NCBI GenBank assembly: GCA_963710375.1
Contig: CAVPZX010000005.1
Location: 416,001-480,000 of the forward strand
Direction of reading: 5' to 3'
From: Nitrospirota bacterium
GTDB taxonomy: Bacteria; Nitrospirota; Thermodesulfovibrionia; Thermodesulfovibrionales; Dissulfurispiraceae
DNA: 64,000 nucleotides
Shown here: in pieces, positions 17,910-51,901 of the stretch
Numbering within the stretch: position 1 is the first letter of the stretch
How the letters are laid out: each line of letters begins with the position of its first letter
Notes under the pieces: generated by a model
What the model was told of the DNA's origin: nothing
Seen by the model: only the letters and a program-made list of their open reading frames with translations
Database searches by the model: none
Translations under genes and position numbers: made by a program

Positions 17910-18098
17910 TTAAATAAGCGGACATTTCTTATGCTGTTTACTCTTACAGTACTCCTGGAGTTGGAACAAACTTGGGACGTAAGGTATATCTCCTGCCTGA
18001 CAGGTGAAAATGATCCATTTAGTAAGATAGGGGCATTTCAGACGCCTGGTCTCAACTTTTGAAAATACACTTTCCCTTCTTGACGTGCTGGTTGGCAT
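17910..18098 (-). CDS. Small Cys4 protein (CPY-type, C-x10-C-x17-C-x7-C)
   Basis: Shares Cys spacing with three paralogues in the window. Confidence 0.7.
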   Translation of the reverse strand: MPTSTSRRESVFSKVETRRLKCPYLTKWIIFTCQAGDIPYVPSLFQLQEYCKSKQHKKCPLI

Positions 18099-18105
18099 TA
18101 CAATA

Positions 18106-18360
18106 TCACCCCATGCTGATTGTTGCGATTATCTCACTATCTGCCATCATTTTTTTCAGGTATTTCTCAATATCAAAATGATCAGGATCATATGTAATGA
18201 CTAGGCTTCCGGTAACCGGGTTGGCCCGGACATCTTTAACCCCCTCCGGTATGGGTATCTCTGCTAATTTTTTTAGTGTTGCAATAGAAAGCTTTTTTAT
18301 CACCGGCACTTGTACTCTGATACGTCCCGGAACATGGTGAACCACCCTATAGTTGATCAT
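18106..18360 (-). CDS. HMA2-like (Cys-less HMA fold) protein
   Basis: HHVPGRIRV...VRANPVTGSLVITYD. Confidence 0.8.
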   Translation of the reverse strand: MINYRVVHHVPGRIRVQVPVIKKLSIATLKKLAEIPIPEGVKDVRANPVTGSLVITYDPDHFDIEKYLKKMMADSEIIATISMG

Positions 18361-18403
18361 TCAATCCACCTTTGTTAGGTTTCATTAATTAAATCATATT
18401 AAT

Positions 18404-18443
18404 TCTTACAAGATGATGAACTGTCAGTTACAACTTTGTGACA
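18404..18443 (-). promoter_or_regulatory. Pho-box-like array
   Basis: Minus-strand GTCAC/GTAAC/TTCAT/GTAAG with 11-bp period (18438, 18427, 18416, 18405). Confidence 0.6.
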
Positions 18444-18641
18444 TTTCAGCAAGGCAGGTTATAGAGTATAGGCCATAACTAATTGTTTTGCCATCGTTTG
18501 CCTTTGGCCTATAATCCATTACCGGCCTTTATGCAATGTAGGTATATAATGAAAGCTTTTTGTAGAATGCTTTTACATTTACATCTGACTAGTTTTATTA
18601 TACACTTTCATTAAAGACTGGCTCACGAGCGGGAGGACAAC

Positions 18642-18929
18642 ATGGCACTTTTTGATAATGGATTAAAGGGTAATATAGTTACAGGCCTCGCTGTCGGCAT
18701 TGGTGCGGCTCTATTTGCCCCTCAGGTGATTCCGGCACTGGCAGGTGTGGTAAAGCCGCTTGCAAAAGCCGCCATAAAGGGCAGCCTTGTTTTATATGAA
18801 AAAGGTAAAGAGGCTTTTGCAGAAGTAGGTGAAATGATGGAAGATATCGTTGCGGAAGTAAAGGCTGAAATGGCAGAATCACACAATGAGGCAGCCGGTA
18901 TCAGCCCCGACGATAAAACAGGCGCCTGA
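18642..18929 (+). CDS. DUF5132-like small GxxxG membrane protein (FezA-like architecture)
   Basis: GLAVGIGAALFAP...KPLAKAAIKG...EDIVAEVKAE; GGGAGG SD. Confidence 0.75.
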   Translation: MALFDNGLKGNIVTGLAVGIGAALFAPQVIPALAGVVKPLAKAAIKGSLVLYEKGKEAFAEVGEMMEDIVAEVKAEMAESHNEAAGISPDDKTGA

Positions 18930-19417
18930 TGATTCCTGAAGCAATTGTATGCCACTCTTCACCTGGAAGATCAAGGGTTAAAGTGCCTTCCAGAAAAGGT
19001 GACGCCGCTTATTTCTCTAGCCTGAAGGACCATTTTGCTCATCTGGAGGGAGTCAAGGAGGTCGAAGCAAATGCCGTTACAGGCAGTGTTGTGTTCATGC
19101 ATGCTGCTGATTTAAAGGCAATTTCTACTTTTGCCGAAGATCATTCACTTTTCAGGCTCATTAAATTAGAGTCCGCGACGCCTGCTCTGTCCCGAAATGT
19201 GGTTAAATCATTCAGGGACTTTGATAAGAAAGTAAAAAAATTTACCGGCAACGAACTGGATGTCCCCGGAGTGGCTTTCCTGACGCTGCTGGGGTTAGGT
19301 ATATACGAAATCGGCAGGGGAAACTTTGCCGCACCTGCATGGTATACCGCTTTTTGGTATTCATTGAACATATTTCTGAAATCAGTGCCTCATACCACCG
19401 ATGAGGAGAACAAATAG
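18929..19417 (+). CDS. HMA2-like domain membrane protein
   Basis: HSSPGRSRV...EANAVTGSV plus C-terminal hydrophobic segment and APAWYTAFWY. Confidence 0.75.
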   Translation: MIPEAIVCHSSPGRSRVKVPSRKGDAAYFSSLKDHFAHLEGVKEVEANAVTGSVVFMHAADLKAISTFAEDHSLFRLIKLESATPALSRNVVKSFRDFDKKVKKFTGNELDVPGVAFLTLLGLGIYEIGRGNFAAPAWYTAFWYSLNIFLKSVPHTTDEENK

Positions 19418-19496
19418 CGGAAGCCATGTAGTTAAACCGCTGCATGGCACATCAAGAAAAAAAACGTTAACAACAATCTAAAAGGGGGTTGCTATT

Positions 19497-20150
19497 ATGA
19501 CTAAGGGCGAGGCTAAGGCTAATTCAAGAGGGGCTGCCAATATTGGAGCAGCTGGAACAAAGGTGAAAGAGGGCATTGTAAGCAGCCTGAAAGGAATAAA
19601 CGAAATCGAGGCGGAAATCGTTAGTTTGGTGAGAAATACTGTCTCCAATGCGCTGAAGGCGACGGCATCGGTAGCCAGCGAGGGCGTGGTCATAACGAAG
19701 GATGTGGTAAAGGGCGCAATTCAGGCTACGGAAGAGGTCGGTACCGGATTGATTTTGAGCACTAAAAGTGTTGCCAAAGGAATTATAATGGGGGTCAGCG
19801 ATGTAGGCGGTGATGTGCTTAGTGTTGCCGGGCAGACTGTCAAGGGCGCTGTCAAAGGTGCTGCCGAAGTCGGTGCAGATGTCGCACTTGTTGCGAGAAG
19901 GGCTGTGGACGGTGTAATTGAAGCAACAAAAGAAATCGGAGGAAATGTTGAAGAGGCTGCCACAGTTGCCGTCGGAGGCGCAATAGAGGCCGCCGGATCT
20001 ATCGGCACTACTGCTGTGCATGCCGTGAAGGACATGCTTGTCGGCGTCGTTTCAGGAGTGAAAGAAGTTGCCGGCTCCGCGCTGCCGAAACCGCGTTCAT
20101 CCGCGGCGACTGAAGTAACGTCAAGGCACAGAACAAAAAGGGAAGAATAG
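19497..20150 (+). CDS. Gly/Ala/Val-rich protein with tandem 22-aa amphipathic repeats
   Basis: KGAIQATEEVGTGLILSTKSVA / KGIIMGVSDVGGDVLSVAGQTV / KGAVKGAAEVGADVALVARRAV / DGVIEATKEIGGNVEEAATVAV... Confidence 0.75.
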   Translation: MTKGEAKANSRGAANIGAAGTKVKEGIVSSLKGINEIEAEIVSLVRNTVSNALKATASVASEGVVITKDVVKGAIQATEEVGTGLILSTKSVAKGIIMGVSDVGGDVLSVAGQTVKGAVKGAAEVGADVALVARRAVDGVIEATKEIGGNVEEAATVAVGGAIEAAGSIGTTAVHAVKDMLVGVVSGVKEVAGSALPKPRSSAATEVTSRHRTKREE

Positions 20151-20156
20151 CGGCAC

Positions 20157-23100
20157 GTGGTCCAGACAGTACACGCGACCATACCCGGCAGGGCCCGATA
20201 CAAGGTGGCCGGACTTTACCGTTCGGAATCGCTGAAAAACCACATTGAATCGGGCCTTTCAGACAGGGAAGGGATTAATCTTGTCTCTGTAAACACATTG
20301 ACCGGGAGCGTTCTCGTATATTACAATTCCATCGATACCCCCGAATACGTTGCCAATGTTATTCAAAATATAGTCCTCGAACATAAAGGCAACGGTTTCA
20401 AGCAGATTGAAGATACTGCTCCTCTGTCCGGCTCCCGGCTTCCTGCAGCGGAAAGCCGTATGCCCGAGACCGGGCTGTCTCCCGCCCCGGCTAAAGAGAT
20501 AAAAAGCAGGGGTAAAGTAAGAAGGCTTGTCAGCCATGCCGAGGACCAGACGGTTGAGGAATGGCATGCTGCCGAACCGTCCGCAATCCTTGAGCGGCTC
20601 GATACTGCAGCATCTACGGGACTTTCAACTGAGAGCGCACAAGCAAGGCTAAAAAAGTTTGGTCCCAATCTCCTGCCTGAATCCGTCCCGCGTTCGGGAT
20701 TGAGCATTCTTCTCGATCAATTCAACTCGATCCCAAATGCCCTGCTGGGCGTAGCAGCCGGTCTCTCTGTTCTTACGGGAGGTATAGCTGATGCAATCGT
20801 CATTGCCGGAGTAGTAGGGATTAATGCGGTCATAGGCTATGTAACGGAGAGCCAGGCGGAAAGAACCATCCACTCTCTCAAGAGTCTTGTCAGGCCCTCT
20901 GCGCTTGTAATAAGAGATAATATTTATAAAGAGGTCCCTGCTGAAGATGTGGTAATCGGCGACATTCTGGTACTCAGGCCCGGCAGCTATGTCGCTGCCG
21001 ACAGCAGAATGGTTGAAGCAACTCACCTGAGTGTTGATGAATCAGCGCTTACCGGGGAGAGTATGCCGGTCGTTAAGTCTACGGAAAGCATCGCAGCCCA
21101 CAATCTGCCGCTTGCCGACAGGGTCAATATGGCCTATATGGGGACCCTGGTGACCGGGGGACAGGGCTTTGCTGTAGTTGTAGCCACCGGAAAGTTTACG
21201 GAGATAGGGAAGATACAGGAACTCGTGGGAGCTGCAGAGTCGCCAGATACTCCTATGGAGCGTCAGCTTAGAAAAATGGGCACACAGCTCGTGCTTATCA
21301 GCGGAGCTGTCTGTGGTCTTGTTTTCATCATAGGACTGCTGAGGGGATATGGTTTCCTGCAGATGCTCAAAAGCTCGATCTCTTTAGCTGTCGCTGCTGT
21401 CCCCGAGGGGCTGCCGACAGTTGCAACTACGACCCTCTCACTGGGGATCAGGAATATGAGGAGGCATAAAGTCCTCATTCGCCATCTCAACGCAGTCGAA
21501 ACACTCGGCTCGGTACAGACCATATGCATGGATAAGACCGGTACCATAACCCTGAACAGGATGACGGTTGTGGCTGTCCATTCGGGGATGAAGAGAATAA
21601 AGGTGATGGACGGAAAATTTATGGCCGGCAGGGAGAACATTAACCCCTATACCTCTGACGAGTTCCTCAGGCTTATCCATATTGCAGTGCTCTGCAATGA
21701 ATCTGAAATCATCGTGAAAGAACATACAGCTCGAGATCACCGTGGGAAGCACTTACGATGAGAACGGAGAGGGGAAATATGTGCTGCGCGGTTCACCCAC
21801 CGAGAACGCCCTTATGCATATGGCTATTTGTGCAGGTGTTGACATAGTTCAACTAAGAAAGATGTTCCCGCTTCTCAAAATAGGCTACCGCTCTGAAAAC
21901 CGCAATTATATGGCAACCCATCATGACTACGGCGTCGAGGGCAAGATCATAGCGTTGAAAGGCAGCCCTACGGAAGTGCTGGCAATGTGCGATTGGTATA
22001 TAAAGGACGGCGAAAAGATTTTGATCTCCGATGATGACAGGCTTGCATTGGAAACAGAGAATGAGCGAATGGCTGGTGAAGCACTGCGAGTCCTTGCCTT
22101 TGCTTATCACCAGTCTGAAAATGGCAACGGCGCCGGGTCCGACATCACCAGAGGTTTTGTGTGGCTCGGCCTGGTCGGGATGGCAGACCCCACCAGAAAG
22201 GGAGTCAGGGAACTGATCGGCGTCTTCCACCGGGCCGGCATAGAAACAGTTATGATAACCGGAGACCAGACGCCTACGGCTTATGCCATCGGAAACGAGC
22301 TTGACCTGAGCAATGGAGAACAGCTCGAAATCCTGGATTCGACCCACCTTACCGATATAGAACCCGATGTCATGAAAGCGCTTGCCGAGCGTGTCCATGT
22401 TTTTGCCCGCGTCAGTCCTGCCCATAAGCTTCAAATAGTGCAGGCTCTTCAGAGTGCGGGGAAAGTAGTCGCAATGACCGGCGACGGCATTAATGACGGC
22501 CCTGCGCTCAAGGCTGCCGACATAGGCATTGCAATGGGGCATACAGGCACAGATGTAGCCCGTGAGGTGGCCGATATTGTGCTTGAGGACGATAATCTTG
22601 AGACCATGATCATCGCTGTAAGCCATGGACGCACTATTTATAACAATATTCGAAAATCAGTGCATTTTCTCCTGTCGACCAACCTCAGTGAAATTATGGT
22701 CATGTTTACGGCCATTGCCGGAGGCCTCGGTCAGCCGGTCAATGCCATGCAACTGCTTTGGATCAACCTCATATCAGATATATTCCCCGGACTGGCGCTG
22801 GCACTTGAACAGCCAGAACCCGATGTGCTCACCAAGCCGCCGCGCAACCCTGAGCACCCTATTATTATGAGCAGCGACTTTAAAAGGATAACTTTCGAAT
22901 CCGCAATGATGAGCGCTACTACTCTCGGCGCATATGGGTACGGCATTGCGCGGTACGGACGTGGAGCGCAGGCAGGGACAATGGCCTTTATGACTCTGAC
23001 AACGAGTCAGCTTCTGCACGCCATTAGCTGCCGTTCTGAAAAAATCAGTGTCTTTGACAAAGAGCGTCTCCCGTCCAACAGGTACCTTGATGCTGCTCTG

Positions 23101-23271
23101 GGAGGCTCATTTGCGCTGCAGGCTTTGACAGTGGCATTGCCCGGACTTAGAGGCCTGCTCGGAACAACAACTATCAATTTTATGGATGCCCTGGTGATCG
23201 CAGGAGGTTCTCTGCTCCCTCTGGTTGTCAATGAAGCTACCAAGAAAACTATGCGAGGTGAAGCTATATGA
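20157..23271 (+). CDS. P2A-like cation-transporting P-type ATPase with N-terminal HMA2-like domain; one +1 frameshift near 21717-21760
   Basis: TGES, AVPEGLP, DKTGT in ORF 20157-21761; KGSP, MITGD, GDGINDGPAL, LWINLISD in ORF 21742-23271. Confidence 0.9.
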
Positions 23272-24455
23272 AAAAGGATTTCATGTTTACGTCCGAATCG
23301 GTAACAGAGGGACATCCCGACAAGCTCTGCGATCAGATTAGCGATGCCATCGTTGACCACTTTCTGCAGCAGGACCCGTACTCACGTGTTATCGCAGAAT
23401 GCGCTGTTTCGACGTCGATACTCTTCATAGCTGCAAGGTTTGCATCTGACGCACGTGTTGACTTCCCCTATATAGCACGTCAGGTAATATCTCAGGTTGG
23501 CTATGAACAGCATGAGTTTAACGGGAAAACATGCAGTATCCTTACGAGCCTCAAAGAATCACCCCGTGACGTGGACTGCTGTTTTGATGAACGGGAGTTG
23601 TCCGAGAGAGAAATCGACAATATCCCGGTCAAGAACCAGGTTACGGTTTTTGGTTTCGCATGTAATCAAACCCCCGCATTTATGCCGCTTCCCATATGGC
23701 TCGCTCATAAGCTTGCCAGACGGCTCACTTCGGCAAGACTTCAGAAGATACTGCCCTATCTTTCCCAGGACGGAAAAACCCAGGTGGGAGTTGAATTCAG
23801 GAACCGCGTTCCATACAGGATACACAGCTTAACGGTTATTGCAAGCCAGAATAAGCGCGGAGGCCCTGATCTGAAACAGTTGGGCGATGATATACGGGAA
23901 GCAATTATCGATAATGTCTTCCTTGATGAATCTATCAAGCCTGATAAAAATACCAGGATATTCGTTAATCCGGACGGCCCGTTTATCACCGGCGGCCCGT
24001 CAATCCATTCAGGGCTTACCGGCAGAAAAAATGCAATTGATACCTATGGGGAGTACTCTCGCCACAGCGGTGCAGCACTCAGCGGTAAGGACCCGATGAG
24101 AATTGACCGGGTCGGCGCGTATGCTGCGCGTTACGCGGCGAAGAATGTGATTGCGGCCGGGCTTGCCGAGGAGTGCGAAATCCAGCTCAGCTATTCCATA
24201 GGTCTTTCCCATCCTGTGAGCATTCAGGTAGAGACCTTTGGCACCGGCAAACTGCCGGACGCGATTATTGCCGATCTGGTTGAGAAGAATTTTGATTTCA
24301 GGCTTGCCGGAATTGTGAAACAGTTTAGTCTCAGGCGCCTGCCTGCTGCCATTAAAGGCGGTTTCTATCGGAAGCTTGCTGTCTATGGGCATGTCGGCAG
24401 AATGGATATAGGGTTGCCGTGGGAAGTCACTGATAAGGCCCACCTGCTGAAATAG
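23268..24455 (+). CDS. metK: Divergent S-adenosylmethionine synthetase paralogue
   Basis: FTSESVTEGHPDK, DGKTQV, GLTGRK, SGKD present; GAGDQG replaced by PVKNQV. Confidence 0.85.
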   Translation: MKKDFMFTSESVTEGHPDKLCDQISDAIVDHFLQQDPYSRVIAECAVSTSILFIAARFASDARVDFPYIARQVISQVGYEQHEFNGKTCSILTSLKESPRDVDCCFDERELSEREIDNIPVKNQVTVFGFACNQTPAFMPLPIWLAHKLARRLTSARLQKILPYLSQDGKTQVGVEFRNRVPYRIHSLTVIASQNKRGGPDLKQLGDDIREAIIDNVFLDESIKPDKNTRIFVNPDGPFITGGPSIHSGLTGRKNAIDTYGEYSRHSGAALSGKDPMRIDRVGAYAARYAAKNVIAAGLAEECEIQLSYSIGLSHPVSIQVETFGTGKLPDAIIADLVEKNFDFRLAGIVKQFSLRRLPAAIKGGFYRKLAVYGHVGRMDIGLPWEVTDKAHLLK

Positions 24456-24533
24456 CAGGCAGAGGCAAAGGTAGAGGTATAGATAGATAAACTCTACCTT
24501 TGCCTCTACCTCTGCCTCTGCCTTTGCTTTTCT

Positions 24534-24588
24534 GTAACTTAAAATTAATGTTCCTGTAAAACTACTTTAACCCTTTTCCCTGTAGAGT
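24534..24588 (+). promoter_or_regulatory. Pho-box-like array and -10
   Basis: GTAAC/TTAAT/GTAAA/TTAAC at 24534, 24545, 24556, 24567; TAGAGT at 24583. Confidence 0.65.
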
Positions 24589-24621
24589 ATATAAATGTGC
24601 TTTATCGCAGGAGGGGTGATA

Positions 24622-25413
24622 ATGGGACAGAATCAAAGCACAGTTCTGAGCATGCGCAATGGTCACTTTATTGTAAAACTGGCTGAATATCACGAAGAAC
24701 TGGAAAACACACTCAAACTGCGTTTCGATATATTTAACAGGGAGATGAATGAGGGCCTAAAAAGCTCTTACGTCACCGGCATGGACATGGACAATTATGA
24801 TGACTACTGTGATCACCTCATTGTTGTCGATACCCGTTGTAACAAGGTGGTCGGGACTTATCGTCTGCTCCTGGGTTTTGTCGCAGAAAACAGTATCGGC
24901 TACTATTCGGAGGGCGAATTCGATATGTCCGCTATCAGGACTATCGGGGGCGATAAGCTGGAACTCGGCCGCTCCTGCGTCCACAAGGATTACAGGAATG
25001 CCGGTGTCATCAATCTGCTTTGGGCCGGCATAGCCCGGTACATAGAAATATATGGTATTCGCCATTTATTCGGCTGCGGCAGTCTGCATACCAGTGACCC
25101 TGAAGAAGTAGGCATGGTATACTCTTACATGAACACATTTCACCGGGCAGGCGACGAATATACGGTGTATCCTATGAAAAAGCTGCGCGAGGTACGCTTG
25201 GCCAGCATTGTGGACCGGAAAACCGCGTTCGATAAACTCCCGCCGCTTATCAAGGGATATCTGCGGCTCGGAGCGCTTATATGCGGAGAGCCGGCTTATG
25301 ACGACATATTCGGAACAACGGATCTCTTTTTGCTCCTGGAAACAGAAAAGCTCATCAGCCGCTATAAAAGGAGGTTTTTCCAGCAGCCAGACGAGACATT
25401 ATGCCGGGCATAA
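24622..25413 (+). CDS. GNAT N-acyltransferase, OlsB-like (ornithine/amino-lipid synthesis)
   Basis: DMDNYDDYCDHL, VVGTYRL, ELGRSCVH, LPPLIKGYLRLGA. Confidence 0.85.
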   Translation: MGQNQSTVLSMRNGHFIVKLAEYHEELENTLKLRFDIFNREMNEGLKSSYVTGMDMDNYDDYCDHLIVVDTRCNKVVGTYRLLLGFVAENSIGYYSEGEFDMSAIRTIGGDKLELGRSCVHKDYRNAGVINLLWAGIARYIEIYGIRHLFGCGSLHTSDPEEVGMVYSYMNTFHRAGDEYTVYPMKKLREVRLASIVDRKTAFDKLPPLIKGYLRLGALICGEPAYDDIFGTTDLFLLLETEKLISRYKRRFFQQPDETLCRA

Positions 25414-26917: not shown

Positions 26918-26972
26918 ATTGTAATCAAATACCATTACAACAATATGACAGTCTGTGTTACCAACGAGTTAA
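26918..26972 (-). promoter_or_regulatory. Pho-box-like array and -10
   Basis: Minus-strand TTAAC, GTAAC, CTGTCAT, GTAAT at 11-12 bp spacing; TACAAT 10 bp downstream. Confidence 0.6.
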
Positions 26973-27196
26973 ATCCCGGAGCACTCGACCGACTTATACG
27001 TACCTCCATAGTCGACCATTTGCATTGAGCAGAAATAGACAGAACACGCTTCATGACGCCTGCTCATGCATATTCTTATGTTCACATCCGGCATATCATT
27101 GATAAGTTTGTTTACCACAAGGCACTGCGCACCTACTTCGCTTCCCTTGAGATACGGACAGATAGTAAGTCTTTCCATGTACATTTTGCTCTCCAT
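26969..27196 (-). CDS. Small Cys4 protein (C-x11-C-x17-C-x7-C)
   Basis: CPYLKG...C...CMSRRHEACSVY. Confidence 0.7.
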   Translation of the reverse strand: MESKMYMERLTICPYLKGSEVGAQCLVVNKLINDMPDVNIRICMSRRHEACSVYFCSMQMVDYGGTYKSVECSGI

Positions 27197-27205: not shown

Positions 27206-27249
27206 ATAATAACAACTCTTGTGTTACAACAATATGAAAAGAATGTTAC
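27206..27249 (-). promoter_or_regulatory. Pho-box-like array and -10
   Basis: Minus-strand GTAAC/TTCAT/GTAAC at 27245, 27234, 27223; TATTAT 11 bp downstream. Confidence 0.6.
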
Positions 27250-27337
27250 AATTCTGTAACAATTGACTAATAACTTACAGCTAATAAGTCATGGGCAAAA
27301 CAACATACTCTTTTACAACCTGTAACCCGGATATTCT

Positions 27338-27544
27338 TTACCTCCTTCGGAGGGTCCTGGCCAAAAAAATCGGACAATTGTCGTAATCTTCATTGTTGCA
27401 ATAGCCGGATCTTCTCCTGGTATCTATTGTCAATTGTGACAGAGAGGCTGCACATATGCCGTTGTCGTTATTGGAATATGGACAGCTATGTTCGCAGCCG
27501 GTAATTGTATGGCATCTTTCGCTCTGCGTTATAGATGTGTTCAT
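27338..27544 (-). CDS. Small Cys4 protein (C-x9-C-x17-C-x7-C)
   Basis: CPYSNNDNGIC...YCNNEDYDNCPIF. Confidence 0.7.
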   Translation of the reverse strand: MNTSITQSERCHTITGCEHSCPYSNNDNGICAASLSQLTIDTRRRSGYCNNEDYDNCPIFLARTLRRR

Positions 27545-27561: not shown

Positions 27562-29292
27562 TTACTCATTGACTCGTTCAAATGGTTTATTGCCATTGGA
27601 CCGTGTTTTGAATCCTGTTGACGAATTCCTTAGTTCATCAGCAATGCCGGTAAGGGCGTCAACCTCATGTGTCACTTCGACAGACATCATCTCCATTTCT
27701 TTTGCTATCGCTGACGTCTCCTCAATACTCCTGAGCACGTCTTCGGATACCGCTGTCTGCTGGTCAACTGCCGCGGCAATCTGAGTTATCTGATCACGTA
27801 CCTTGCGCACAGAGTCCACTATACTGGTCAGTGAAGCGCCCGCCTGTGTCATATAGTCTTTCGCTCCTGTAACTTCATCAGAAGCATCCCGCATGGATTT
27901 TGTTGTCTTCCTGGATTCTGACTGGACAGCGTGAATTTTTTCCGTAATCTCGGCGGTGGCCCTGATTGTCCGCTCGGCCAGCTTGCGCACTTCATCAGCA
28001 ACTACGGCAAATCCCCTCCCTTGCTCGCCGGCGCGGGCCGCTTCAATAGCTGCATTGAGTGCAAGAAGATTGGTTTGGTCGGCAATATCGTTTATGACGG
28101 TAGCTATATCCCCGATTTCGCTCACCCTGTTGTTAAGCCCCTCCATCATTGAAGCTGCCTCAACAGTTGAAACGTGCACCTTGCTTACCGTAGCAACTGC
28201 CCCGTCAATTACGCTCTTGCCCCTTTCAGCGGCGGACATGGTCTGTGCAGAGGTCTCAGATGCGGCTGTGGCGCCTGCCGCAATGTTGTTAATGGTCTGG
28301 CTCATCTCGCCGGCAGAGGTGGCGATGTGCGCTGCTTGGAGGGATTGGCTTTTTGCGCCGCCAGCCGTTTTTTCAGCTTCAGCCCTCAGCTTCTGTACTG
28401 TGGAGATCACCTTATTTTCCGAATCGAGCATGCCGCCTATCATTCCGTTAAATGAATGGATCATCTTGTTAACATCGCGGCTCAGAATCCCTATCTCATC
28501 TTTGCTGTCATATTCAACTGATGCGGTAAGATCGCCGCTGGCCACCTGTTCAACAGTTTCAGCAAGTTTGGTCAGCGGTTTAATTATGTCGTTGACTATA
28601 AGGTAGCCGAAAATTATTGCGAGCGCCACTCCGACTATAATACTCACAAAAGCTATGGTGCTCACTGTTGTAAACAGCGATTCCGAGTGTGCATATGTCT
28701 CTTTAGCTTCCTCGATGTGGAGGGCGATCAACTCGCCAAGTTTTTGCTCAATCGGCTCAATAGTGGGATTCAGTTCGTCGATAAAAAAGTCGCTGAGTTT
28801 CTGACGGTCTTCCTCTTGTAAACTGTCCTTTAATTTGTTCAGAGGCGCCTCCAGACCAACCTGGGTATTATTTGCGCTCGCGATATCAAACAGCGGTTGA
28901 GTCTCTGCTATCAGTTTCTTCTCACGTGCGGTGTGCTCCAGTTCGGTATAGGCCTTCCATTTTTCGGCGATCACCAACAGCGCCTTATCAACGTTCTTGC
29001 GTCCTTCCTGCCATAAAGACTTATCCCCTTCAATAGGGTTGTCCCTGATGCGCTGCACGGACTTGACGATATTTATTGCATACATGTCAGATATTTCCTG
29101 AAGATCTTTCAATGGCAGCACATTTTTTTTGTATACGATATCGGTGCCGGCTACGGTCTTTTGCATGCCTATGATACCGAGTGTGCCGATAGCGATCAAC
29201 AGCATCAGCATAAAAACGACGAGCGCCAGGAGACGGTAGCCGATCTTTACATTATCCAGAAAAACGGTCTTGTATTTTTTTTTGAAACTCAT
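27562..29292 (-). CDS. Methyl-accepting chemotaxis protein (4HB sensor, HAMP)
   Basis: [38 protein letters not shown] at 29292 overlaps the upstream stop. Confidence 0.95.
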
Positions 29293-30518
29293 TATGCAAA
29301 GCGCTCTTTTATTGCATCTATAATCCTGTAGCGCAGGGACCAGAAACCGGTTTCCGGGCAGGGGGAGAGTATAGAATTTTTGCCGATACTGTACCTGTTG
29401 CCTCTCCAAACAACGGTGTTGCTGACAATCGGCACAGACCATATGAGCCCGATAAGAAGGTCTTTAAACGGGGCAAGCAAATAAAGAAAAGGATTATCCA
29501 GTTCGCTTCCGGTCTTTCTGCCCAGATAGAAGTCACCGGCCACCTTAAGTAGTGAAGTGAGAATTGCGAACGTGACGGTCAATTTAGTGCATTGCCAGAA
29601 TACAATCGGCAGCGCCGACATGAATACCGGGTTGCCTAATAGTTCGAATACATATTTCCCGCCGCCGAGTTTCCACCTGAGCTTGCCCCATCTCGTATGA
29701 CGGTTAAGGAACCGCCTTAGCCCCCAGTATTGATTTACATTTTGCACCATGTAGCCAGACAGCACCACTTTTTTGCCGCTCTTGCGCATTCTTTCCCCAA
29801 TGACATAATCCTCGGCAAGAATATCTTTTACCGCTTTGAGCCCGCCGATTGCCTCTAAATCCTTCTTGGACATCAGCATGGATTTCCCAACCACGCAGGG
29901 CATTCTCAAAAACTTATCGAGAAAGCATACGCTTCCCATAACAAAAGAGTTAAGATGCAGATTTTCAAATACTGCGCCCAGGGAACGGCCGCCGACACCT
30001 TTTATAATATTGCTTACCAACCCTATTTCACGGCCTTTGGCAGGATTCTCTATATGACTGGTTATTGCCCTGAGATACTTTTCATCAACCATGACATTGC
30101 TGTCGCTTATAAGGATATAGTCATACCTTGAAACTTTATACGCGGGCAGAAGATTATTGACTTTCGGATTAAGGCCGGAATTGGAATCTTCAACTATAAT
30201 GGTGATGTTTCTGTCAGGGCATTTTTCTCTTATTTTCCTCGCTACTTTGTAAGCAGGATCATTATGACTCTGGAGCGAGAATATGATCTCATATTCAGGA
30301 TAGTCCTGATTACAAAAGCTGAGAAGGTTGTCGTGCAAATTGTCATCCAATCCCTTAAGCGGTTTAAGAATCGAAACGGGAGGAAAAAGTCGGGGAAGGG
30401 CATGCCCTTCCCCGCAGTCACAGGGAGTGGAAAGATACGAGCGCACTGCCAATATTTGGAAGCCATACGCAATAAGACCTAAAAAAGTAAGAGAAGCAAA
30501 AAGCCAGAATATGCCCAT
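29292..30518 (-). CDS. Ceramide glucosyltransferase/HpnI-like glycosyltransferase
   Basis: [30 protein letters not shown] motifs. Confidence 0.85.
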
Positions 30519-31242: not shown

Positions 31243-31257
31243 ATTAGTATTTCTTTG

Positions 31258-31295
31258 GTTACAGCATTATTAAGGGCGGATTAAGATTATGTTAC
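31258..31295 (-). promoter_or_regulatory. Pho-box-like array
   Basis: Minus-strand GTAAC/TTAAT/TTAAT/GTAAC at 31291, 31280, 31269, 31258. Confidence 0.65.
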
Positions 31296-32533
31296 GATCT
31301 GCTTTTGATTATATAAGCGTAATATGCCGCGGCATTGGTGGGCTTGCGTTCCATTGTGTTGAAGTTAACCCGGTAGAGGCCGAACCTGGCATCGAGTCCC
31401 TGCAGCCATTCGTAGTTATCGATCAGAGACCAGTAGAAATAGCCCCTGACATCGATACCGTCATTGATGCTTTTTTCGAGTGCGTCAATATGCCTTTTCA
31501 TATATTTAATTTTTTTCTGTCCGTCGCGGGTTGCAATACCGTTCTCGGTAATGATCAGAGGCACATTAAGCTTTGAAGCGTATCTCAGGACCTTTTCGAG
31601 ACCGCGCGGATGTATTTCCCATCCCATATCGGTCAGTCCATATCCGTCAATGTCCCTGTTCCTCAGTTCAACTCCCATCTTCTTAAACGGATTAAACCGT
31701 ATATGCACGCGTGTATAATAGTTGACCCCAAAGAAGTCCAACTTGTTTTTAATGGGGACAGGAATATTTATTTCGTTTTTAAAAGGGAACTTTACCTTCA
31801 GAACGCCGGTCAAAAAAGCATCCAGCAGCGAATGGTTGTAAAAATACTTGGCGATTTTTGACAGAAGCCTGTCCAGCGGGTTGAACCGGTGCCATGGCGC
31901 CAGGGCCGCCATATTATGCGCCACGCTGACCATTGGTGTAATCCCGTGTTTTTTTGCCTGCTCATGAATAAGGTCGTATGCCTTTGCGTGGCAGACAAGT
32001 ATGTTTTGCAGCGCCTTTATGGCAAGCGAGGGGTCGCGAATACCGGGCGGCATACAGCCTTCCAGATAACCGCCCAACAGTAGCACATAGGGCTCATTGA
32101 ATGTTATCCAGTAGCGTACCCCCTTGAGAGATGCCACCACTGTGTCGAGAAATTTCAAGAATTTGTCTACCGAAGCGTCTTCATGCCAGGGATATTTTTT
32201 GATGAACCACAGGGGGTGGGTAAAGTGGTTTAGCGTGACCATCGGTTCGATATTGTTCTGAATAAGTATATCGATGATTTCCTGATAGTGTGCCAGCGAT
32301 GCAGTGTCCCAAGTATTTTCCCTGGGCTGGATCCTGCTCCACTCTATGGAAAAACGATAGGAGTTGACGCCGAGGTTTTTTAACAGGAGCAGGTCTTCTT
32401 TGTAAAGCGTATAATGGTTGGTTACATTGGGCTTTTCACTGAGTATGGCGTCCCATGAGGTCCAGTCTGCATATGGAGAACCCTCGAGCTGAAATGCGGA
32501 TGTAGCAACACCCCAAAGAAATCCTTTATTCAT
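31292..32533 (-). CDS. Glycoside hydrolase family 1 (beta-glucosidase)
   Basis: FLWGVATSAFQ, TFNEP, ITENG, DNYEW. Confidence 0.93.
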   Translation of the reverse strand: MNKGFLWGVATSAFQLEGSPYADWTSWDAILSEKPNVTNHYTLYKEDLLLLKNLGVNSYRFSIEWSRIQPRENTWDTASLAHYQEIIDILIQNNIEPMVTLNHFTHPLWFIKKYPWHEDASVDKFLKFLDTVVASLKGVRYWITFNEPYVLLLGGYLEGCMPPGIRDPSLAIKALQNILVCHAKAYDLIHEQAKKHGITPMVSVAHNMAALAPWHRFNPLDRLLSKIAKYFYNHSLLDAFLTGVLKVKFPFKNEINIPVPIKNKLDFFGVNYYTRVHIRFNPFKKMGVELRNRDIDGYGLTDMGWEIHPRGLEKVLRYASKLNVPLIITENGIATRDGQKKIKYMKRHIDALEKSINDGIDVRGYFYWSLIDNYEWLQGLDARFGLYRVNFNTMERKPTNAAAYYAYIIKSRS

Positions 32534-34671: not shown

Positions 34672-36895
34672 TTACCTGTTGTTCTTGCGGAACATTTCGG
34701 AGAGCGCATTAAACCTCCTGTCAGAAACCATTTGTTCAATGTTTGCCGGAGTTTTCTGCATCCAGTTGGGATATGATCCAGTTATGCCGGGTATATTCTG
34801 TTGGTCGACCGTGCCGATGATATCATCAAGACTGACTGCCACCAGTTTGCAGGAGGTTCGTGCCAGGTATTCATAGATGGCAAGGCATAATTCCGGTGAC
34901 ATATCGGGCGCGAGTCTAAAATCATCCGGAACGATGCCCTGGGATTTAAGGGCGTCGAGCATAAGCATTCTGTCACGCTCCCTGTCTTTGAGGCTCCGAT
35001 GCATCATCTCACTATCATGGTACACGTTCAACTGCTTCTTTACCCTGATGTCCCTGCCGGACCAGTAACCGTACACTGTCGGCAAGTCGTGTGTAGTTAT
35101 TGAGCAGAGGGCCATGGGAGGGTACTGTTCAGGGTGTCTGAATGAAGGGTCAGGATAGTTTCTTTCAAAATAGAAAAGCCTGTAAGAAAGCATCCCGAAC
35201 CTAAGGAGAGTTTCACGAACGTTTTCTCCCAATGTGCCGAGGTCTTCTGCTATTACCATCGTCTTGTTCCGCACGCTTTCAAGCGCAATTATTCTGAGAA
35301 AATCCTCTTCGGGACAGGCCACATAGGCGCCCTTTTCAGCAGGCATGCCTCCTGGTATCCAGAAAAGCCTGAACAAACCGAGCGCATGGTCAATTCTCAA
35401 TGCGCCGTTATATTTCATGTTCTTTGCTATCAGTTGTATAAAAAAATCATAACCGGTCTCTTTGAGTTTTCCGGAAATTACAGGCGGGAAAGTCCAGTTT
35501 TGTCCGTTGGGGTTGAAATCGTCGGGCGGCGCTCCTACATCTACGTGATCAGCGGTAATGCCCTGATGGTTCCATGAATCGGAGCCGCCGCCTATTGAGC
35601 CGATAGCGAGGTCATGGTATATGCCCAACTGCATTCCAAGACTAAATGCCAGCTCCGCCGTCTCCCTGTGCTGCTCATCTACAAGCCACTGTACATACTT
35701 ATGGAAAAGCAGATCTTTTTCATGTAATGCCCTGAATTCCCGGACCGCATCGCTGAGTGGATTGAGAAACTCTTCCGGCCAGTCCTGCCATATATGGGTA
35801 TTATGCACACTGTTCATATGCTCCCATAAGGCCGAAAACAGGGCAAATGAATCAAGAGCCGCTCCCTCTTGTTCAATGTACTTTCTGAAATCACAGACTG
35901 CGGGGCGAGTTGTTTTCGTATTCGCCCTGATAGAAATAATCGAATGCATGTCTGAGTATGCTCTTTTTCAAAAAGGCGATCTTCTCATATTCGACCAGGT
36001 CTCCATCTATTGCGGCGCTCATCTCTTTTTTGAAGATATCCGAAATCATCGTCTCCTGTGCACGTTCGGAAGCGTTCACTTCATGAATGGCATCCATATC
36101 GAGATATATGAAATTTTTATAAAATCTGCTGATGGGTGAGTAGGGGCTGATAGCGAAAGGCATTTTATTAGGAATGGCATGCAACGGGTTTATACCCACA
36201 AAGTCGCCCTTAAGCTCAGCAGTGAACTTGATGATGGTCTTTAGGTCGGTAAAATCGCCGACACCCCAGTTCCTCGAAGAACGAAGTGAATAGAGATTAA
36301 TTGAGAGCCCCCAGGTCTTGCGGTTTTCAAGCTCCGGGGGGGTATAACAGGTATCCGGAGTGATAATGATTCGACAGGTCTTCTCCAGTACAGCGCCTCC
36401 ACCAGGGAAAATATTTTCGGGGTGCCTGCATATGACCGTTGCACGATAGTAACCGATATCTCTGAAACCCTTGTCAGTCAAATCAACTTTGACGTACCTG
36501 GCGCCGCCAATCCACTGCTGGTCTTTAACTGTCAGGCTGTTGCCGGTAAATGTTAACTCTTCCCGATGCCCGTGCTCATCTTCGAGATAACATGAAAGAG
36601 TCAGCCGGTGTTCTTCACCCTCATTTACTGGAACATGCGCAGCAATAGTAAAAGGCTGTGCATTGACTGACAGCACCTTCACAGGATCGATAAAACTGCT
36701 CCATGGTTTGCACTGCTCCCTTGCAATCGCCGACGCCAGGCTTTCGGTTGAGTCAACGTCTATCTTCATTGACTTGAGGATGGCCTTTTTCGTATCAATT
36801 GAAGCAATATGCCGGTTGCCGAAGATGTCCCAGTACTCGGGGACGATCCCGCAGAGGTGTGACAATTGCTCAATCAACTCGTCGTAATGGGACAT
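34672..36895 (-). CDS. malQ: 4-alpha-glucanotransferase (GH77); +1 frameshift near 35895
   Basis: GVGDFTDL, SPYSPISR in the upstream ORF; DLAIG, RIDHALG, AEDLG, THDLPT in the downstream ORF. Confidence 0.88.
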
Positions 36896-37010
36896 GCGAA
36901 CCTTTCCGGAGCAACCCATTAAAATGGGTAAACAGCCTACAGAATTGTACAGTATAAGAAATTATTTGTCATCATTTGGCTCAGCATCTTGAATCATATG
37001 CTAAGCATAA

Positions 37011-38456
<1,446 letters not shown>

Positions 38457-38463
<7 letters not shown>

Positions 38464-45776: not shown

Positions 45777-45958
45777 ATTTTCTCTTAACCACCTTTGTTC
45801 ACGTATTTCTCAGCGCCAGACAAAATTATAATCAATTCATTTGACTTTCGACAACAATAGGAAAGATAGAAAAAGACAACACCAATATTTTACAATGAAT
45901 GTTGAAGGAGTAGATACGCTGAAGGCTGGTCTCGGGCGACGGCGTATCCAATTTAATT

Positions 45959-46327
45959 ATGGATGCTTTTACCAAGATTGCGGAGCAGAGGATCAAGGAT
46001 GCTATCGACAACGGTGAGTTCGATAACCTCAGCGGCTCAGGCAAGCCTCTTTCGCTTGAAGATGAGAGCTGGATACCCGAAGATCTGAGGCTTGCCTACA
46101 GGATTCTGAAAAATAACGGTTTCCTGCCGCCGGAGTTGGAACTGAGGAACGAAATAATCAATCTCCGGAGATTTATTGACACAATTGATGACGATAAGGA
46201 GAGGGTAAAGAAACTCAGGGAACTGAACTTTAAAATTACAAAGCTTGGACTCATGAGGGGGAAGCCATGCCTCTTAGAACAATTTCCGGAATATGAGAGC
46301 AGGTTTTATGAGAAGGCGCTGAAGTAA
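45959..46327 (+). CDS. DUF1992 family protein
   Basis: IAEQRI...GEFDNLSGSGKPL...LKNNGFLPPE. Confidence 0.85.
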   Translation: MDAFTKIAEQRIKDAIDNGEFDNLSGSGKPLSLEDESWIPEDLRLAYRILKNNGFLPPELELRNEIINLRRFIDTIDDDKERVKKLRELNFKITKLGLMRGKPCLLEQFPEYESRFYEKALK

Positions 46328-46343
46328 AGAAGAAGGAGGGGGT

Positions 46344-46805
46344 ATGCATCTCTATCTTGTGCAGCATGCGGAAGCTAAAAAGGAAGAGGAAGATCCATTG
46401 AGATCGCTTACCGACAAAGGAACTCATGATATAAAAAAGGTAGCTTCCAATGTCGTCAAACTGAAACTAAAAGTCGCTAACATTTATCACAGCGGTAAAA
46501 CTAGGGCCTTACAAACCGCTCAGATACTGCACAAGAGTGTAGACTCTTCTGGTGGAATATCACAAACTGACGGATTATCGCCTATGGACGAACCAGGAGT
46601 TTGGGCAGAGCGATTGGGTTCAATAAAAGATAACATTATACTGGTTGGACATCTGCCCCATCTATCAAAACTTGCGTCACTTTTAGTTGCAGGGGATGAG
46701 GGAAAAGACGTAGTAAACGTTCAAAAGGCATCAATAGTCTGCCTCCAGCGATTTGACGATGGACATTGGGCGGTAGACTGGATGCTCACTCCTGAAATAT
46801 GCTGA
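46344..46805 (+). CDS. sixA: Phosphohistidine phosphatase SixA
   Basis: LVQHAEA, RALQTA, LVGHLP. Confidence 0.88.
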
Positions 46806-49800: not shown

Positions 49801-50056
49801 CGATCAAGCCCTTCATGAAACAGCGGACCTTGCCCGGTTGACCGAGGAGGAAAAAAGGAGCCAGTTGCAAAGACTCAGGGAGTTTCACAACCGCCACGCG
49901 CAGGAAGCGCCGATGGCGCTGGCCATGCTTAAGCAAGCCGCAATCAACGGCGACAATATTTTCGGAGCTCTGATGGATGCGGTCCGCTGTTGTTCTCTGG
50001 GTCAGCTCACGCAGGCCCTATTCGAGGTAGGCGGACAGTATCGCCGTGGCATGTAA
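46799..50056 (+). CDS. icmF: Fused isobutyryl-CoA mutase/MeaB-type GTPase
   Basis: B12-binding [13 protein letters not shown] GTPase, mutase domain; 1085 aa. Confidence 0.93.
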
Positions 50057-50109
50057 ATAGGGACAGGTGTAAGTGGTAACTGGATTTTAGAGAATAAGGA
50101 GGAGGTTGT

Positions 50110-50751
50110 ATGAACGAGTTCGAATCCTGGCACAATGATGTGATCGGAAACAAGGCAGTAGCTGCTTTGGTCAAAAACAAATTCACCGCTACATATTGCA
50201 AGACCGGACCTGAAGCCGTGGAAAAAATTCTCGAACAGATACCGCCCAACTCATCCGTCGGAATAGGCGGCTCCTGGACAGTGATGCAACTGGGATTGCT
50301 GGATAAATTGGCAGCCCGAGGCAGCGAGGTGCTGAACCACGGGAAAGCTGGTTTGACCCCGGAGGAAGCAATGTCGATCCGCCGGCGGCAGTTGACATGT
50401 GATGTATTTCTTACCGGCACCAACGCAGTGACGCTTGACGGCAAACTGGTCAATACGGATGGGGTTGGAAACCGTGTAGCGTCGATGATTTTTGGTCCAA
50501 AGAAGGTAATTCTGGTTGTTGGAATCAATAAAATAGTCAAAGACGTGGAGGCGGCGGAAGCAAGGATTAAACTATATGCCGCACCCATCAATAACAAACG
50601 GTTGAAACTCCCCAATCCCTGCACCATAACAGGTGAATGCATGGATTGTGAGAGTGACACCCGGATCTGTAATGTTACTACCATTATGAAAAAGAAGCCA
50701 AAACTTACAGATGTCCATGTTTTCGTCGTCGGGGAGGAATTGGGGTTCTGA
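50110..50751 (+). CDS. LUD/LutC-family (lactate utilisation) protein
   Basis: GTNAVTLDGKLVNTDGVGNRV, PCTITGECMDC. Confidence 0.85.
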   Translation: MNEFESWHNDVIGNKAVAALVKNKFTATYCKTGPEAVEKILEQIPPNSSVGIGGSWTVMQLGLLDKLAARGSEVLNHGKAGLTPEEAMSIRRRQLTCDVFLTGTNAVTLDGKLVNTDGVGNRVASMIFGPKKVILVVGINKIVKDVEAAEARIKLYAAPINNKRLKLPNPCTITGECMDCESDTRICNVTTIMKKKPKLTDVHVFVVGEELGF

Positions 50752-50862
50752 TTCGGCAGCAAAAGGAGTCGCAGAAGCCGGATAGAACAAAAACGAATCG
50801 GTTTTTTAAACAGGAAGCGATTTATATTTAAACACACTAAAAAAACATTAAGAGGAGAGAAA

Positions 50863-51051
50863 ATGCCGATAGTTCAGATTGATTTTTTAGAGGGTCGTTC
50901 TATAGAGCAAAAGCGGGAACTGGCGAAAAGAGTAACTCAAGCTGTCTGCGAGACTGCGAAATGCCCTCCGGAAGCTGTTACCATCCTTCTGCGGGAATTG
51001 CCTGCAACTAATATTGCCAAAGCAGGCACTCTGATAAGCGACAAGCAATAA
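50863..51051 (+). CDS. 4-oxalocrotonate tautomerase family protein
   Basis: N-terminal Pro, EGRSIEQK. Confidence 0.9.
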   Translation: MPIVQIDFLEGRSIEQKRELAKRVTQAVCETAKCPPEAVTILLRELPATNIAKAGTLISDKQ

Positions 51052-51052
51052 G

Positions 51053-51086
51053 AAAAGCCCATTCCAGTTCTGGAATGGGCTTTTAC
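51053..51086 (+). terminator. Rho-independent terminator
   Basis: AAAAGCCCATTCCAG-TT-CTGGAATGGGCTTTT. Confidence 0.85.
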
Positions 51087-51217
51087 CTTTAAATAACAAC
51101 GTGTTGTGATATCCCCATCGGGGTCGATTTTGAGCCCCGATAAAGTCTCAAAGTGGGTTAAATCTCCCTGTCAACCTCAGAGTGAGGAATAAAGCGCATC
51201 GGGGATTGTTGAGGGAA

Positions 51218-51265
51218 TTAATCAAAACTTAACCATCCTGCAATACTATTTAACACTCCTGCAAT
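51218..51265 (+). promoter_or_regulatory. Pho-box-like array
   Basis: TTAAT/TTAAC/GCAAT/TTAAC/GCAAT at 10-11 bp spacing. Confidence 0.5.
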
Positions 51266-51353
51266 ACTGTTGAAATAATGCCTGTGCCATCATATTAGTG
51301 GAAGCTTAAAGCCAATGAAACCTGCGTAGACCAAATTTATAAAGAAGAGCGCC

Positions 51354-51677
51354 GTGATAAATAATTTCAAAACTGATAGAACTATTAGAACCGGAGTTAA
51401 GAAGAGAGCATTAGCCTCACAGATTAAAGGACTTGCAGAAGCAATATTGCTACAGTTATTGGAAGATTTGTGGATCGATAAAGAAAGATCACGCTGCATG
51501 GACTTTTTTATAGGAGAAGGATTTAGTATCTGTTCCGAAATCGCCGGGATGAGTTCTGATGATAAGGTAAAAATACTGAGTATTGTCGAAGATATTATTT
51601 ATCAAAATTCAGGGAAAGACAAAAAAGTTAGAGGTATAAGAGCTGAGCGTGGTGAGGGTTATGAACTTGTGCAATGA
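51354..51677 (+). CDS. Hypothetical protein
   Basis: 107-aa ORF upstream of a Cys4 gene. Confidence 0.55.
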   Translation: MINNFKTDRTIRTGVKKRALASQIKGLAEAILLQLLEDLWIDKERSRCMDFFIGEGFSICSEIAGMSSDDKVKILSIVEDIIYQNSGKDKKVRGIRAERGEGYELVQ

Positions 51678-51703
51678 AATAATAAACAGTTCGGAGGTGT
51701 AAG

Positions 51704-51901
51704 ATGGCTTGTCCGTTTTTCAAAGAGGCTTATGTAGGGTATTGCAGTGCATGTGATTTTCCTTATACTCCCAGCATTATTGAACTCGAACAACAGTGTC
51801 TTAAAGACAGTATCGAGTTTTGTGTACACTTTAATAGGCTTCATTCAATGGCTCAAATTGCAACGCTAATGTCACGTAGTTATTCAGAGTCTAATAATTG
51901 A
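51704..51901 (+). CDS. Small Cys4 protein (C-x10-C-x17-C-x7-C)
   Basis: MACPFF...PYTPSIIELEQQC; GGAGGT SD; aligns with 17910-18098. Confidence 0.75.
   Translation: MACPFFKEAYVGYCSACDFPYTPSIIELEQQCLKDSIEFCVHFNRLHSMAQIATLMSRSYSESNN

Follow-up and report, generated by a model that had tools for sequence, protein, structure and literature searches.

Four-cysteine mini-proteins of a Nitrospirota genome: a conserved family with subfamily-bound candidate Pho boxes and signalling-gene neighbours

Introduction

FmdB-type and other small zinc-ribbon proteins, like zinc-finger-receiver fusions, carry a small four-cysteine domain that is either free-standing or N-terminal to a receiver domain, and PhoB/PhoP boxes are built from 11-base-pair (bp) direct repeats. 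The DNA considered here is a stretch of 64,000 nucleotides from a Nitrospirota bacterium (assembly GCA_963710375.1, contig CAVPZX010000005.1, positions 416,001 to 480,000; hereafter the window), in which four dispersed open reading frames (ORFs) encode mini-proteins with four regularly spaced cysteines, termed the Cys4 domain, and box arrays show the same 11-bp period. The half-site of these arrays is closer to the Gram-positive TTAACA form than to the CTGTCAT of E. coli, and PhoB is predicted to bind it.

Two described groups of small proteins offer the nearest parallels. The C(P)XCG zinc-finger microproteins of Haloferax volcanii, as described in the abstract of PMC11241148, resemble the Cys4 proteins in their length of under 80 amino acids (aa), four cysteines, many paralogues per genome and Cys-Pro motif, and in being easily missed. 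Small DUF1127 proteins, which according to the abstract of PMC12501420 bind PhoR, are likewise small, multi-copy and tied to phosphate control, with a proposed action on a two-component system through protein contact. A preliminary description of the window had read the four ORFs as small zinc (Zn)- or iron-sulphur (Fe-S)-binding regulators or chaperones induced by phosphate starvation, each in a unit preceded by a box array.

A conserved family absent from curated sets

All four ORFs (Table 1) proved real at the coordinates first given for them, three on the minus strand, where the plus-strand frame of 17910, 26969 and 27338 is not the gene, and one on the plus strand; translation reveals no internal stop. 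Their cysteine intervals (10/17/7 in 17910 and 51704, 11/17/7 in 26969, 9/17/7 in 27338) bear out the spacing C-x9-11-C-x17-C-x7-C, and the shared motifs PYVPSLFQLQEYC and PYTPSIIELEQQC are present as originally reported. The strict pattern matches 5 of 46,381 six-frame segments of the 3.19-megabase (Mb) genome, four of them in the window (about 2% of the genome), and ten per-segment shuffles gave no match nine times and one match once; the fifth paralogue lies outside the window (G000:C2:52779-52967). The pooled ratio of nonsynonymous to synonymous substitution (dN/dS), taken against same-genus orthologues over 41-42 codons counted from the first cysteine, is 0.07 for 17910 (6 pairs), 0.31 for 26969 (4 pairs) and 0.19 for both 27338 (4 pairs) and 51704 (8 pairs), and therefore places all four frames under purifying selection at the protein level. 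Ribosome-binding sites accompany them: a Shine-Dalgarno (SD)-like GGGGTGA ahead of the ATG of 17910, an SD-like AGGTGA for 27338, an SD GGAGGTG for 51704 and, in 26969, an SD-like site solely for the second Met (27184), which may be the start of that paralogue.

A hidden Markov model built from the four proteins, the check proposed at the outset, retrieved 40 relatives, two of them labelled Nitrospirae; further homologues are labelled Nitrospiraceae and Nitrospirota, with one Deltaproteobacteria record, and a 27-sequence profile reached 828 representatives at 50% identity (E up to 0.001). The cysteine spacing is kept in these homologues: among the 136 of the best 150 that a regular expression could parse, 128 show 17 residues between the second and third cysteines and 132 show 7 between the third and fourth, within ranges of 7-13 / 16-19 / 5-9; the remaining 14 deviate in the residues after the first cysteine or in the third interval, one of them lacking that cysteine altogether. 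C22, C33, C51 and C59 are invariant across a 140-sequence alignment, whose consensus, CP(H/Y/F)L-x7-C-x-A-x4-YxPSxF(E/Q)LxEY-C-x4-(H/Y/F)-x2-CP(F)(Y/F), also conserves a Y-x-P-S-x-F-x-L-x-E-Y helix and an aromatic residue ahead of the fourth cysteine. The family occurs in 26 of 41 close-relative genomes, with up to 12 copies each, and in 68/151 and 130/301 genomes of the phylum (the latter at E 0.01). Its presence is patchy by genome family, with 54/64 in family f19 and 19/23 in f1, and 3/50, 1/24 and 0/11 in others. Two loci (L131, L146) hold three or four Cys4 genes in tandem.

The early impression that no named family covers these proteins holds, with no match over a curated cut-off in Pfam, NCBIfam, PHROGs or the PDB. 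Pfam and NCBIfam searches left the four window proteins without a match, as NCBIfam did six further members and a PDB sequence search the Cys4 proteins; among 140 members, no Pfam family was found in more than two (best E 0.0012) and each PHROG family matched at most one. A locus search with the single 17910 protein as query found no relative, and the titles and abstract openings searched contain no description of the family, most subscription journals and supplements lying outside their coverage. Taken together, the comparisons show a real, conserved, uncurated paralogous family of four-Cys mini-proteins, whose ligand spacing appears new and whose kind, the small cysteine-ligand metalloprotein, would be an already familiar class.

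Other small cysteine proteins lie in the same surroundings. A sibling-like protein, CP-x8-CYC-x14-CC-x5-C, is encoded at L195:1691-1891 (+), L196:1532-1780 (-) (G000 C2, C9) and L188:4802-5014 (-), in ORFs that overlap the starts of MCP-looking genes (MCP, methyl-accepting chemotaxis protein); it scores just 6-7 bits on the Cys4 profile, and kinship is unproven. Small four-Cys ORFs of the types C-x9-C-x14-C-x6-C and C-x6-C-x17-C-x7-C, with weak profile scores, stand near Cys4 genes in relatives' Pho islands at L048:3750-3938 (-), L052:5713-5949 (-), L189:3104-3328 (-), L040:2727-2939 (+) and L054:3201-3404 (+).

Predicted fold and metal

The AlphaFold2 (AF2) model, with a mean predicted local distance difference test (pLDDT) score of 68 and a predicted template modelling score (pTM) of 0.42, places a hairpin (25-27, 31-33) between Cys22 and Cys33 and helices at 44-51 and 54-58, running to Cys51 and Cys59. 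Foldseek against the PDB returned a best E of 3.8 and VIA-align no Z of at least 2 among 48,161 chains, the ordered part comprising about 40 residues, and a BFVD fold search gave nothing significant; for a model of this size, neither novelty nor kinship would follow from such blanks. With four invariant cysteines as candidate ligands, the domain could be a zinc finger in the broad sense. The two CxxC knuckles of a zinc ribbon or C(P)XCG zinc finger were seen in none of the 136 parsed members, and no ferredoxin-type Fe-S motif (such as CxxCxxCxxxCP) or profile match was found in Cys4 members; any Fe-S binding would have to be of an atypical kind. The domain likely binds one metal ion, and Zn is preferred over Fe-S because no known Fe-S spacing is present.

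Candidate Pho boxes and their reach

An 11-bp half-site matrix was trained on 22 pstS leaders, all from other genomes, in which the half-site T(G/T)TAACA recurs with an 11-bp period before pstS; the leaders of this genome, one masked, one truncated and five second-copy leaders were excluded. Scoring three half-sites together as an array, with a cut-off of 13 bits, yields 28 places in the genome, seven of them in the window (7721, 17818, 24533, 27250, 31285, 34531, 51249). Nearly all sit 20-330 bp ahead of a same-strand gene; among them are the arrays of both pstS leaders and those heading a phosphonate-transporter-like gene (by eye), an OlsB-like acyltransferase and a PHP gene. By sequence and position they make credible Pho boxes for the lineage, and the 28 form a coherent candidate Pho regulon.

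The claim that each Cys4 unit follows such an array survives in part. The array before 26969 is strong, 27250(-) lying 54 bp upstream of the ORF with its score reached in 0/1000 shuffles; that before 51704 is moderate and that before 17910 weak; loci orthologous to the latter HMA_2-Cys4 unit bear arrays of 7.6-26.5 bits some 350-425 bp ahead of the first Cys. The 27338 ORF has no box within 1 kilobase (kb; best -5.1), and the 31285(-) box, about 3.7 kb upstream, would reach it only through a unit of PHP, glycosyltransferase 21 (GT21) and MCP genes that is inferred, like the other operon structures, from gene spacing.

How far the link extends was assessed in 129 distinct members from fetched loci, 123 of them with a full upstream kilobase. 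An array of at least 13 bits lies within 1 kb of 50/123 members (40 distinct boxes), against 36/3135 called genes of this genome, a 41% rate that is bound to a sample of kin genomes chosen around strong matches and is not family-wide. In a quick tree (46 columns, 129 rows; only starred clades used), the co-occurrence expected by the preliminary description is complete in the 26969 clade (11/11 members, support 100) but fails in the 51704 clade (3/23, support 97) and in a large sister clade, mostly f19 (0/34, support 94). By genome family, boxes precede 1/31 f19 members and 49/92 others, even though the matrix works in f19, where four pstS leaders score 27-34 bits; the fifth paralogue of this genome also has no box. 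Pho control as the defining feature of the family, and with it phosphate-starvation induction as a family property, was rejected on these counts. Boxes being clade-bound, Pho control is thus a trait of the paralogue 1-3 subfamilies, and paralogue 4 gives the impression of having been recruited locally.

The pstS leader itself holds a further element. At window 17825-17839 (-) a near-perfect SD, GGAGGTGAT, is followed immediately by ATG-TAA and overlaps the first half-site of the pstS array; an SD plus ATG/TTG-TAA(TCA) occurs in 13/23 pstS leaders checked, mostly of the same genus, and a start-stop directly follows GGAGGTGA at just 2/102 such sites in the genome. The element might serve to load ribosomes on, or to stabilise, RNA that reads through from the HMA_2-Cys4 unit; alternatively, it might in part be a side effect of the box sequence.

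Signalling genes as neighbours

When 601 neighbouring ORFs were clustered, the top group consisted of signalling proteins (88 proteins, 45 loci), followed by HMA_2 (23 loci), pstS (18), GT21 (14) and ATPase (14), and by smaller groups such as a 107-aa protein (10), sigma-70 factors (10) and MCPs (8). Pfam searches of 47 of the 88 signalling neighbours gave NarL-, NtrC- and PhoB-type regulators, single receiver domains, kinases and GGDEF/EAL proteins. A receiver gene is found no more than 500 bp from 26/78 non-Pho members and 7/51 Pho members, against 78/3064 genes here, a background that is slightly low since the receiver profile found 91 genes where Pfam counts 116 domains. Receiver-domain density per megabase in four f19 genomes is not above that of this genome, one of the counts being an 'at least' value. 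Individual loci place Cys4 within a chemotaxis operon with overlapping stop and start (MCP-CheW-Cys4-CheD, L179), between MCP and CheY-like genes, and directly ahead of phoB-phoR-type genes (L040, L048). Sigma-54-like TGGCAC...TGC sites precede five members, a lead only, given a loose pattern with 9 matches in 129 leaders and no control run.

Domain fusions

Fusions were recovered through HMMER and genome searches. The Cys4 domain stands N-terminal to a receiver domain in three proteins of 186-189 aa (P0132, L186, L180), and genome G494 encodes a related receiver (43% and 51% identical) on its own, in the second gene downstream of a Cys4 gene. A protein of 300-320 aa carries two tandem Cys4 copies followed by a GcvH-fold domain, assigned by Pfam and by Foldseek (E 9e-9 to 3ab9). 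Not one of the eight cysteines varies among 13 such sequences; membership of GcvH itself is not supported, at 34 bits against an NCBIfam cut-off of 117 and with the lipoyl lysine position not conserved. AF2 left residues 1-122 of this fusion unmodelled (pLDDT under 50; 13 sequences), and the Atlas offered no usable match for the tandem repeat.

Five named tandem-fusion loci carry Chitinophagaceae, Bacteroidetes and Ignavibacteriales labels; in the phylum of these loci 7/201 genomes match, the profile's own genome counted, and always in tandem form. The fusion gene is followed by genes for a multiheme cytochrome, a molybdopterin-family subunit, a 4Fe-4S protein, NrfD and a second GcvH-like membrane protein, and a kinase, an M54 peptidase and a sigma-54 regulator are encoded divergently; neighbours were typed by Pfam for L086 alone and by similarity at the other loci. 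This operon, resembling alternative complex III (ACIII), is seen at L086:7692-14720 (+) and at L087-L090 and L164-L169, with two GcvH-like proteins and a facing kinase - archaemetzincin-like - sigma-54 regulator unit; its second GcvH-like protein is membrane-anchored and has another cysteine-rich stretch. Passages of PMC9386147 mention ACIII and glycine cleavage, each on its own. No GcvH-like Cys4 fusion is described in the titles and abstract openings searched, whose coverage leaves out most subscription journals and supplements. A word-index search for longer fused forms gave 7651 candidates, none at E 0.01, a weak negative. At L181:1706-2242 (-) the Cys4 domain continues into lipoprotein-like sequence (178 aa), either a true fusion or a lost stop; this ORF lies under a 23.9-bit Pho box, ahead of a porin-like gene and a phosphate-binding-like gene.

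Weighing the explanations

Nearness to, and fusion with, signal-transduction proteins across subfamilies therefore favours the regulator or adaptor half of the original 'regulators or chaperones' proposal over the chaperone half. The best single explanation, held tentatively and with somewhat less than even confidence, is that Cys4 is a metal-binding (likely Zn) accessory of phosphorelay signalling, some 45 residues long, which binds a receiver domain or kinase and tunes its output. The CP-aromatic-x7-9-C-x17-C-x7-C domain would fold as a short beta-hairpin and two helices around one metal ion, likely Zn, and turn its conserved YxPSxFxLxEY helix towards a partner protein, for which a receiver domain or kinase is the most plausible candidate. 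Each copy would be switched on by the regulator of its own unit, PhoB for paralogues 1-3 and regulators of NarL or sigma-54 type for the majority of the paralogue-4 clade, paralogue 4 itself having perhaps gained its Pho box locally, and the product would feed back on, or link, the pathway of that unit, as feedback or cross-talk.

Several points weigh against this reading. Firstly, fusion to many partners is usual for receiver domains, one event may account for all three receiver fusions, two of which come from one genome family (f2), and the GcvH-like fusion, lying in a respiratory, ACIII-like operon, would suit an electron carrier just as well. Secondly, loci were picked around high-scoring matches or clusters in related genomes, and the percentages are inflated by sampling and kinship; genes of regulator-controlled islands lie near regulators whatever their role. 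Thirdly, a receiver gene adjoins none of the Cys4 genes in the window; phoB, at G000 C4:119272-119982, and phoR lie apart from them in this genome, with no box and no Cys4 gene in the surrounding 7 kb; and 29/129 members are without either a Pho box or a signalling neighbour up to 2.5 kb away. Finally, four cysteines are no proof of Zn, 5 of 14 haloarchaeal C(P)XCG four-Cys microproteins being Zn-free according to the abstract of PMC11241148.

A more far-reaching version, rather unlikely as a whole, would make Cys4 a metal-binding 'connector' domain of new spacing and possibly new fold, grown to as many as 12 paralogues in a genome, each wired to a different phosphorelay (PhoB, NarL-type, NtrC-type, CheY) and docking on its receivers, with tandem recruitment onto a GcvH-like subunit that is not lipoylated and through which an ACIII-like respiratory complex would be tied to a two-component system.

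It is unlikely, next, that Cys4 carries an Fe-S cluster or works as a thiol redox switch, serving as redox or oxygen sensor or as small electron carrier for signalling proteins or ACIII-like complexes. The eight invariant cysteines of the tandem fusions and the redox content of their operon would suit such a role, Fe-S proteins commonly carry Cys-Pro motifs at both ends, and the patchiness across genome families could track lifestyle; the domain shows no CxxC or other known Fe-S spacing, however, matches no Fe-S family (the best, Fer4_17 at E 0.059, falls on a different stretch of one protein), and redox enzymes are not a recurring neighbour class of its free-standing members.

Less probable again, and quite doubtful, is a small transcription cofactor acting on RNA polymerase or an alternative sigma-70, DksA/TraR-like in role and aiding the units it heads. 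RpoS/RpoD-like sigma genes adjoin members at 10 loci (11 proteins), Cys4 is often the first gene after a regulated promoter, and uncharacterised phage proteins of 62-70 aa are weak look-alikes (Atlas 0.87; BFVD E 0.35 and 0.76), both under the tools' thresholds. Yet no family was matched by sequence or fold, the PHROG matches are isolated, viral pattern and tblastn searches gave chance matches only, and the core charge, which varies between -4 and +3 in the four window proteins, is not conserved and therefore speaks against a common nucleic-acid ligand.

Phage origin was a separate candidate, and was rejected: a fixed-spacing DNA pattern gave three viral matches, none in a frame encoding the domain, a second pattern built on a phage motif gave one match judged unrelated, and tblastn reached only E 6-7 against phages and nothing in plasmids.

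The chaperone half of the original proposal, by which Cys4 proteins would be phosphate-starvation metal buffers or chaperones for an adjoining HMA_2 / P-type ATPase system, is improbable. It draws on the HMA_2 proteins that share units with paralogues 1 and 2 and recur near members, and on Pho boxes kept in both of these clades; more than half of the sampled members, however, have neither a Pho box nor an HMA_2 or ATPase neighbour, the f19 clade is devoid of boxes, the 84-aa HMA_2 neighbour of paralogue 1 contains zero cysteines, and the receiver fusions, GcvH-like fusions and chemotaxis-operon positions are left unexplained. No better prospect attaches to a generic structural mini zinc finger with unrelated partners in each subfamily, its signalling and Pho links merely mirroring regulator-rich islands that gather small genes: subfamilies are mutually 16-30% identical with differing tails and charges, contexts are diverse and kin are not independent, but within each subfamily gene order and box position are kept across families and orders, and boxes and receiver genes are each enriched more than tenfold over background.

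Other features of the window

Table 1. Positions of the Cys4 genes, their immediate neighbours and the associated arrays in the window
Feature	Position	Strand	Remarks
pstSCAB-phoU promoter array, four half-sites	17786..17829	-	36.6 bits, top site of the genome; pstS over NCBIfam cut-off
Cys4 paralogue 1	17910..18098	-	62 aa, C22-C33-C51-C59; ends short HMA_2-Cys4 unit just upstream of pstS
HMA_2 domain protein, 84 aa	18106..18360	-	PF19991 E 2e-9; predicted co-transcription with paralogue 1
Weak Pho-box-like array before HMA_2-Cys4 unit	18400..18443	-	9.3 bits, under 13-bit cut-off; 4/1000 shuffles
HMA_2 protein, 123 aa	26248..26619	-	PF19991 E 1.6e-13; closes paralogue-2 unit
Double zinc-ribbon protein, 111 aa	26600..26935	-	PF03811, NF050000 domain; downstream of paralogue 2; recurs, 9 loci
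Cys4 paralogue 2	26969..27196	-	75 aa; heads Cys4 - Zn-ribbon - HMA_2 unit
Array before paralogue 2	27218..27261	-	27250(-), 25.6 bits, rank 4 in genome, strong
Cys4 paralogue 3	27338..27544	-	68 aa, C-terminal LARTLR; 17 bp after MCP gene
Array before PHP - GT21 - MCP - paralogue 3 run	31253..31296	-	18.5 bits, 0/1000 shuffles
Pho-box-like array before 107-aa ORF and paralogue 4	51249..51281	+	16.2 bits, 0/1000 shuffles, moderate
107-aa protein with LAEAILLQ motif	51354..51677	+	constant neighbour of paralogue-4 clade, 10 loci
Cys4 paralogue 4	51704..51901	+	65 aa

The order HMA_2 then Cys4 is found again in relatives. The 107-aa protein, without a Pfam, PHROG or NCBIfam match, belongs to a family of 107-124 aa (LAEAILLQSxEDLW...C..FF.GEGF..C) with three copies in the genome (window 51354-51677 (+), C2:52412-52771 and C5:75499-75873), which nearly always adjoins a Cys4 gene or two-component genes.

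Positions 7721-51281 appear as a phosphate-starvation island with pst, an OlsB-like acyltransferase plus a further acyltransferase, GT21, PHP and an EAL/CBS/GGDEF gene. The HMA_2-Cys4 unit has as its divergent neighbour a DUF5132 - HMA_2 - 217-aa protein - P-type ATPase - MetK-like operon (18642-24455 (+)), whose ATPase is broken into overlapping ORFs (20157-21761 and 21742-23271) by a frameshift or assembly error. A 4-alpha-glucanotransferase (34672-36919 (-)) is likewise broken into two overlapping ORFs, and extended, overlapping starts occur at 27562-29442 and 37050-38463; together these hint at frameshift errors in the assembly. Restriction-modification-like genes (by eye, from translations), small DUF2924/RAMA- and DUF6364-like ORFs and a phage-type integrase occupy 56251-63596, probably the edge of a mobile island.

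Significance and comparison with known systems

A large domain family (828 clusters at 50% identity), widespread in a single phylum that has received little study, has thus stood unannotated, without a curated profile or solved relative, and the same work yields a usable Pho-box matrix and a candidate Pho regulon for the lineage (28 sites, 7 in the window). Small cysteine proteins of obscure function are a familiar class, and the mechanism proposed for Cys4 is drawn from context; should Cys4 proteins bind receivers or kinases, they would represent small two-component modulators of a new class, with feedback on phosphate sensing among their roles. The Cys4-Cys4-GcvH-like protein, for its part, would be an undescribed subunit of ACIII-like operons. 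At 50-80 aa the Cys4 proteins are cheap to produce, and metal, structure and partner could be quickly settled.

Unlike the C(P)XCG microproteins, the Cys4 family is bacterial, lacks CxxC knuckles and any profile match, and combines a 10/17/7 spacing with a predicted hairpin and two helices. From the DUF1127 proteins it differs in being a cysteine-ligand domain, with no DUF1127 match in 140 members, and its contact with a two-component system would be a prediction from genomic context. Zinc ribbons have two CxxC pairs, which the Cys4 family is without, a single one of 140 members touching Zn_ribbon_8 at E 0.026. The C-terminus of the tandem fusion shares the H-protein fold with GcvH, and differs by its two N-terminal Cys4 repeats, its ACIII-like operon and its unconserved lipoyl lysine. 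In possible working mode, the likeness of Cys4 is to two-component connector proteins in general.

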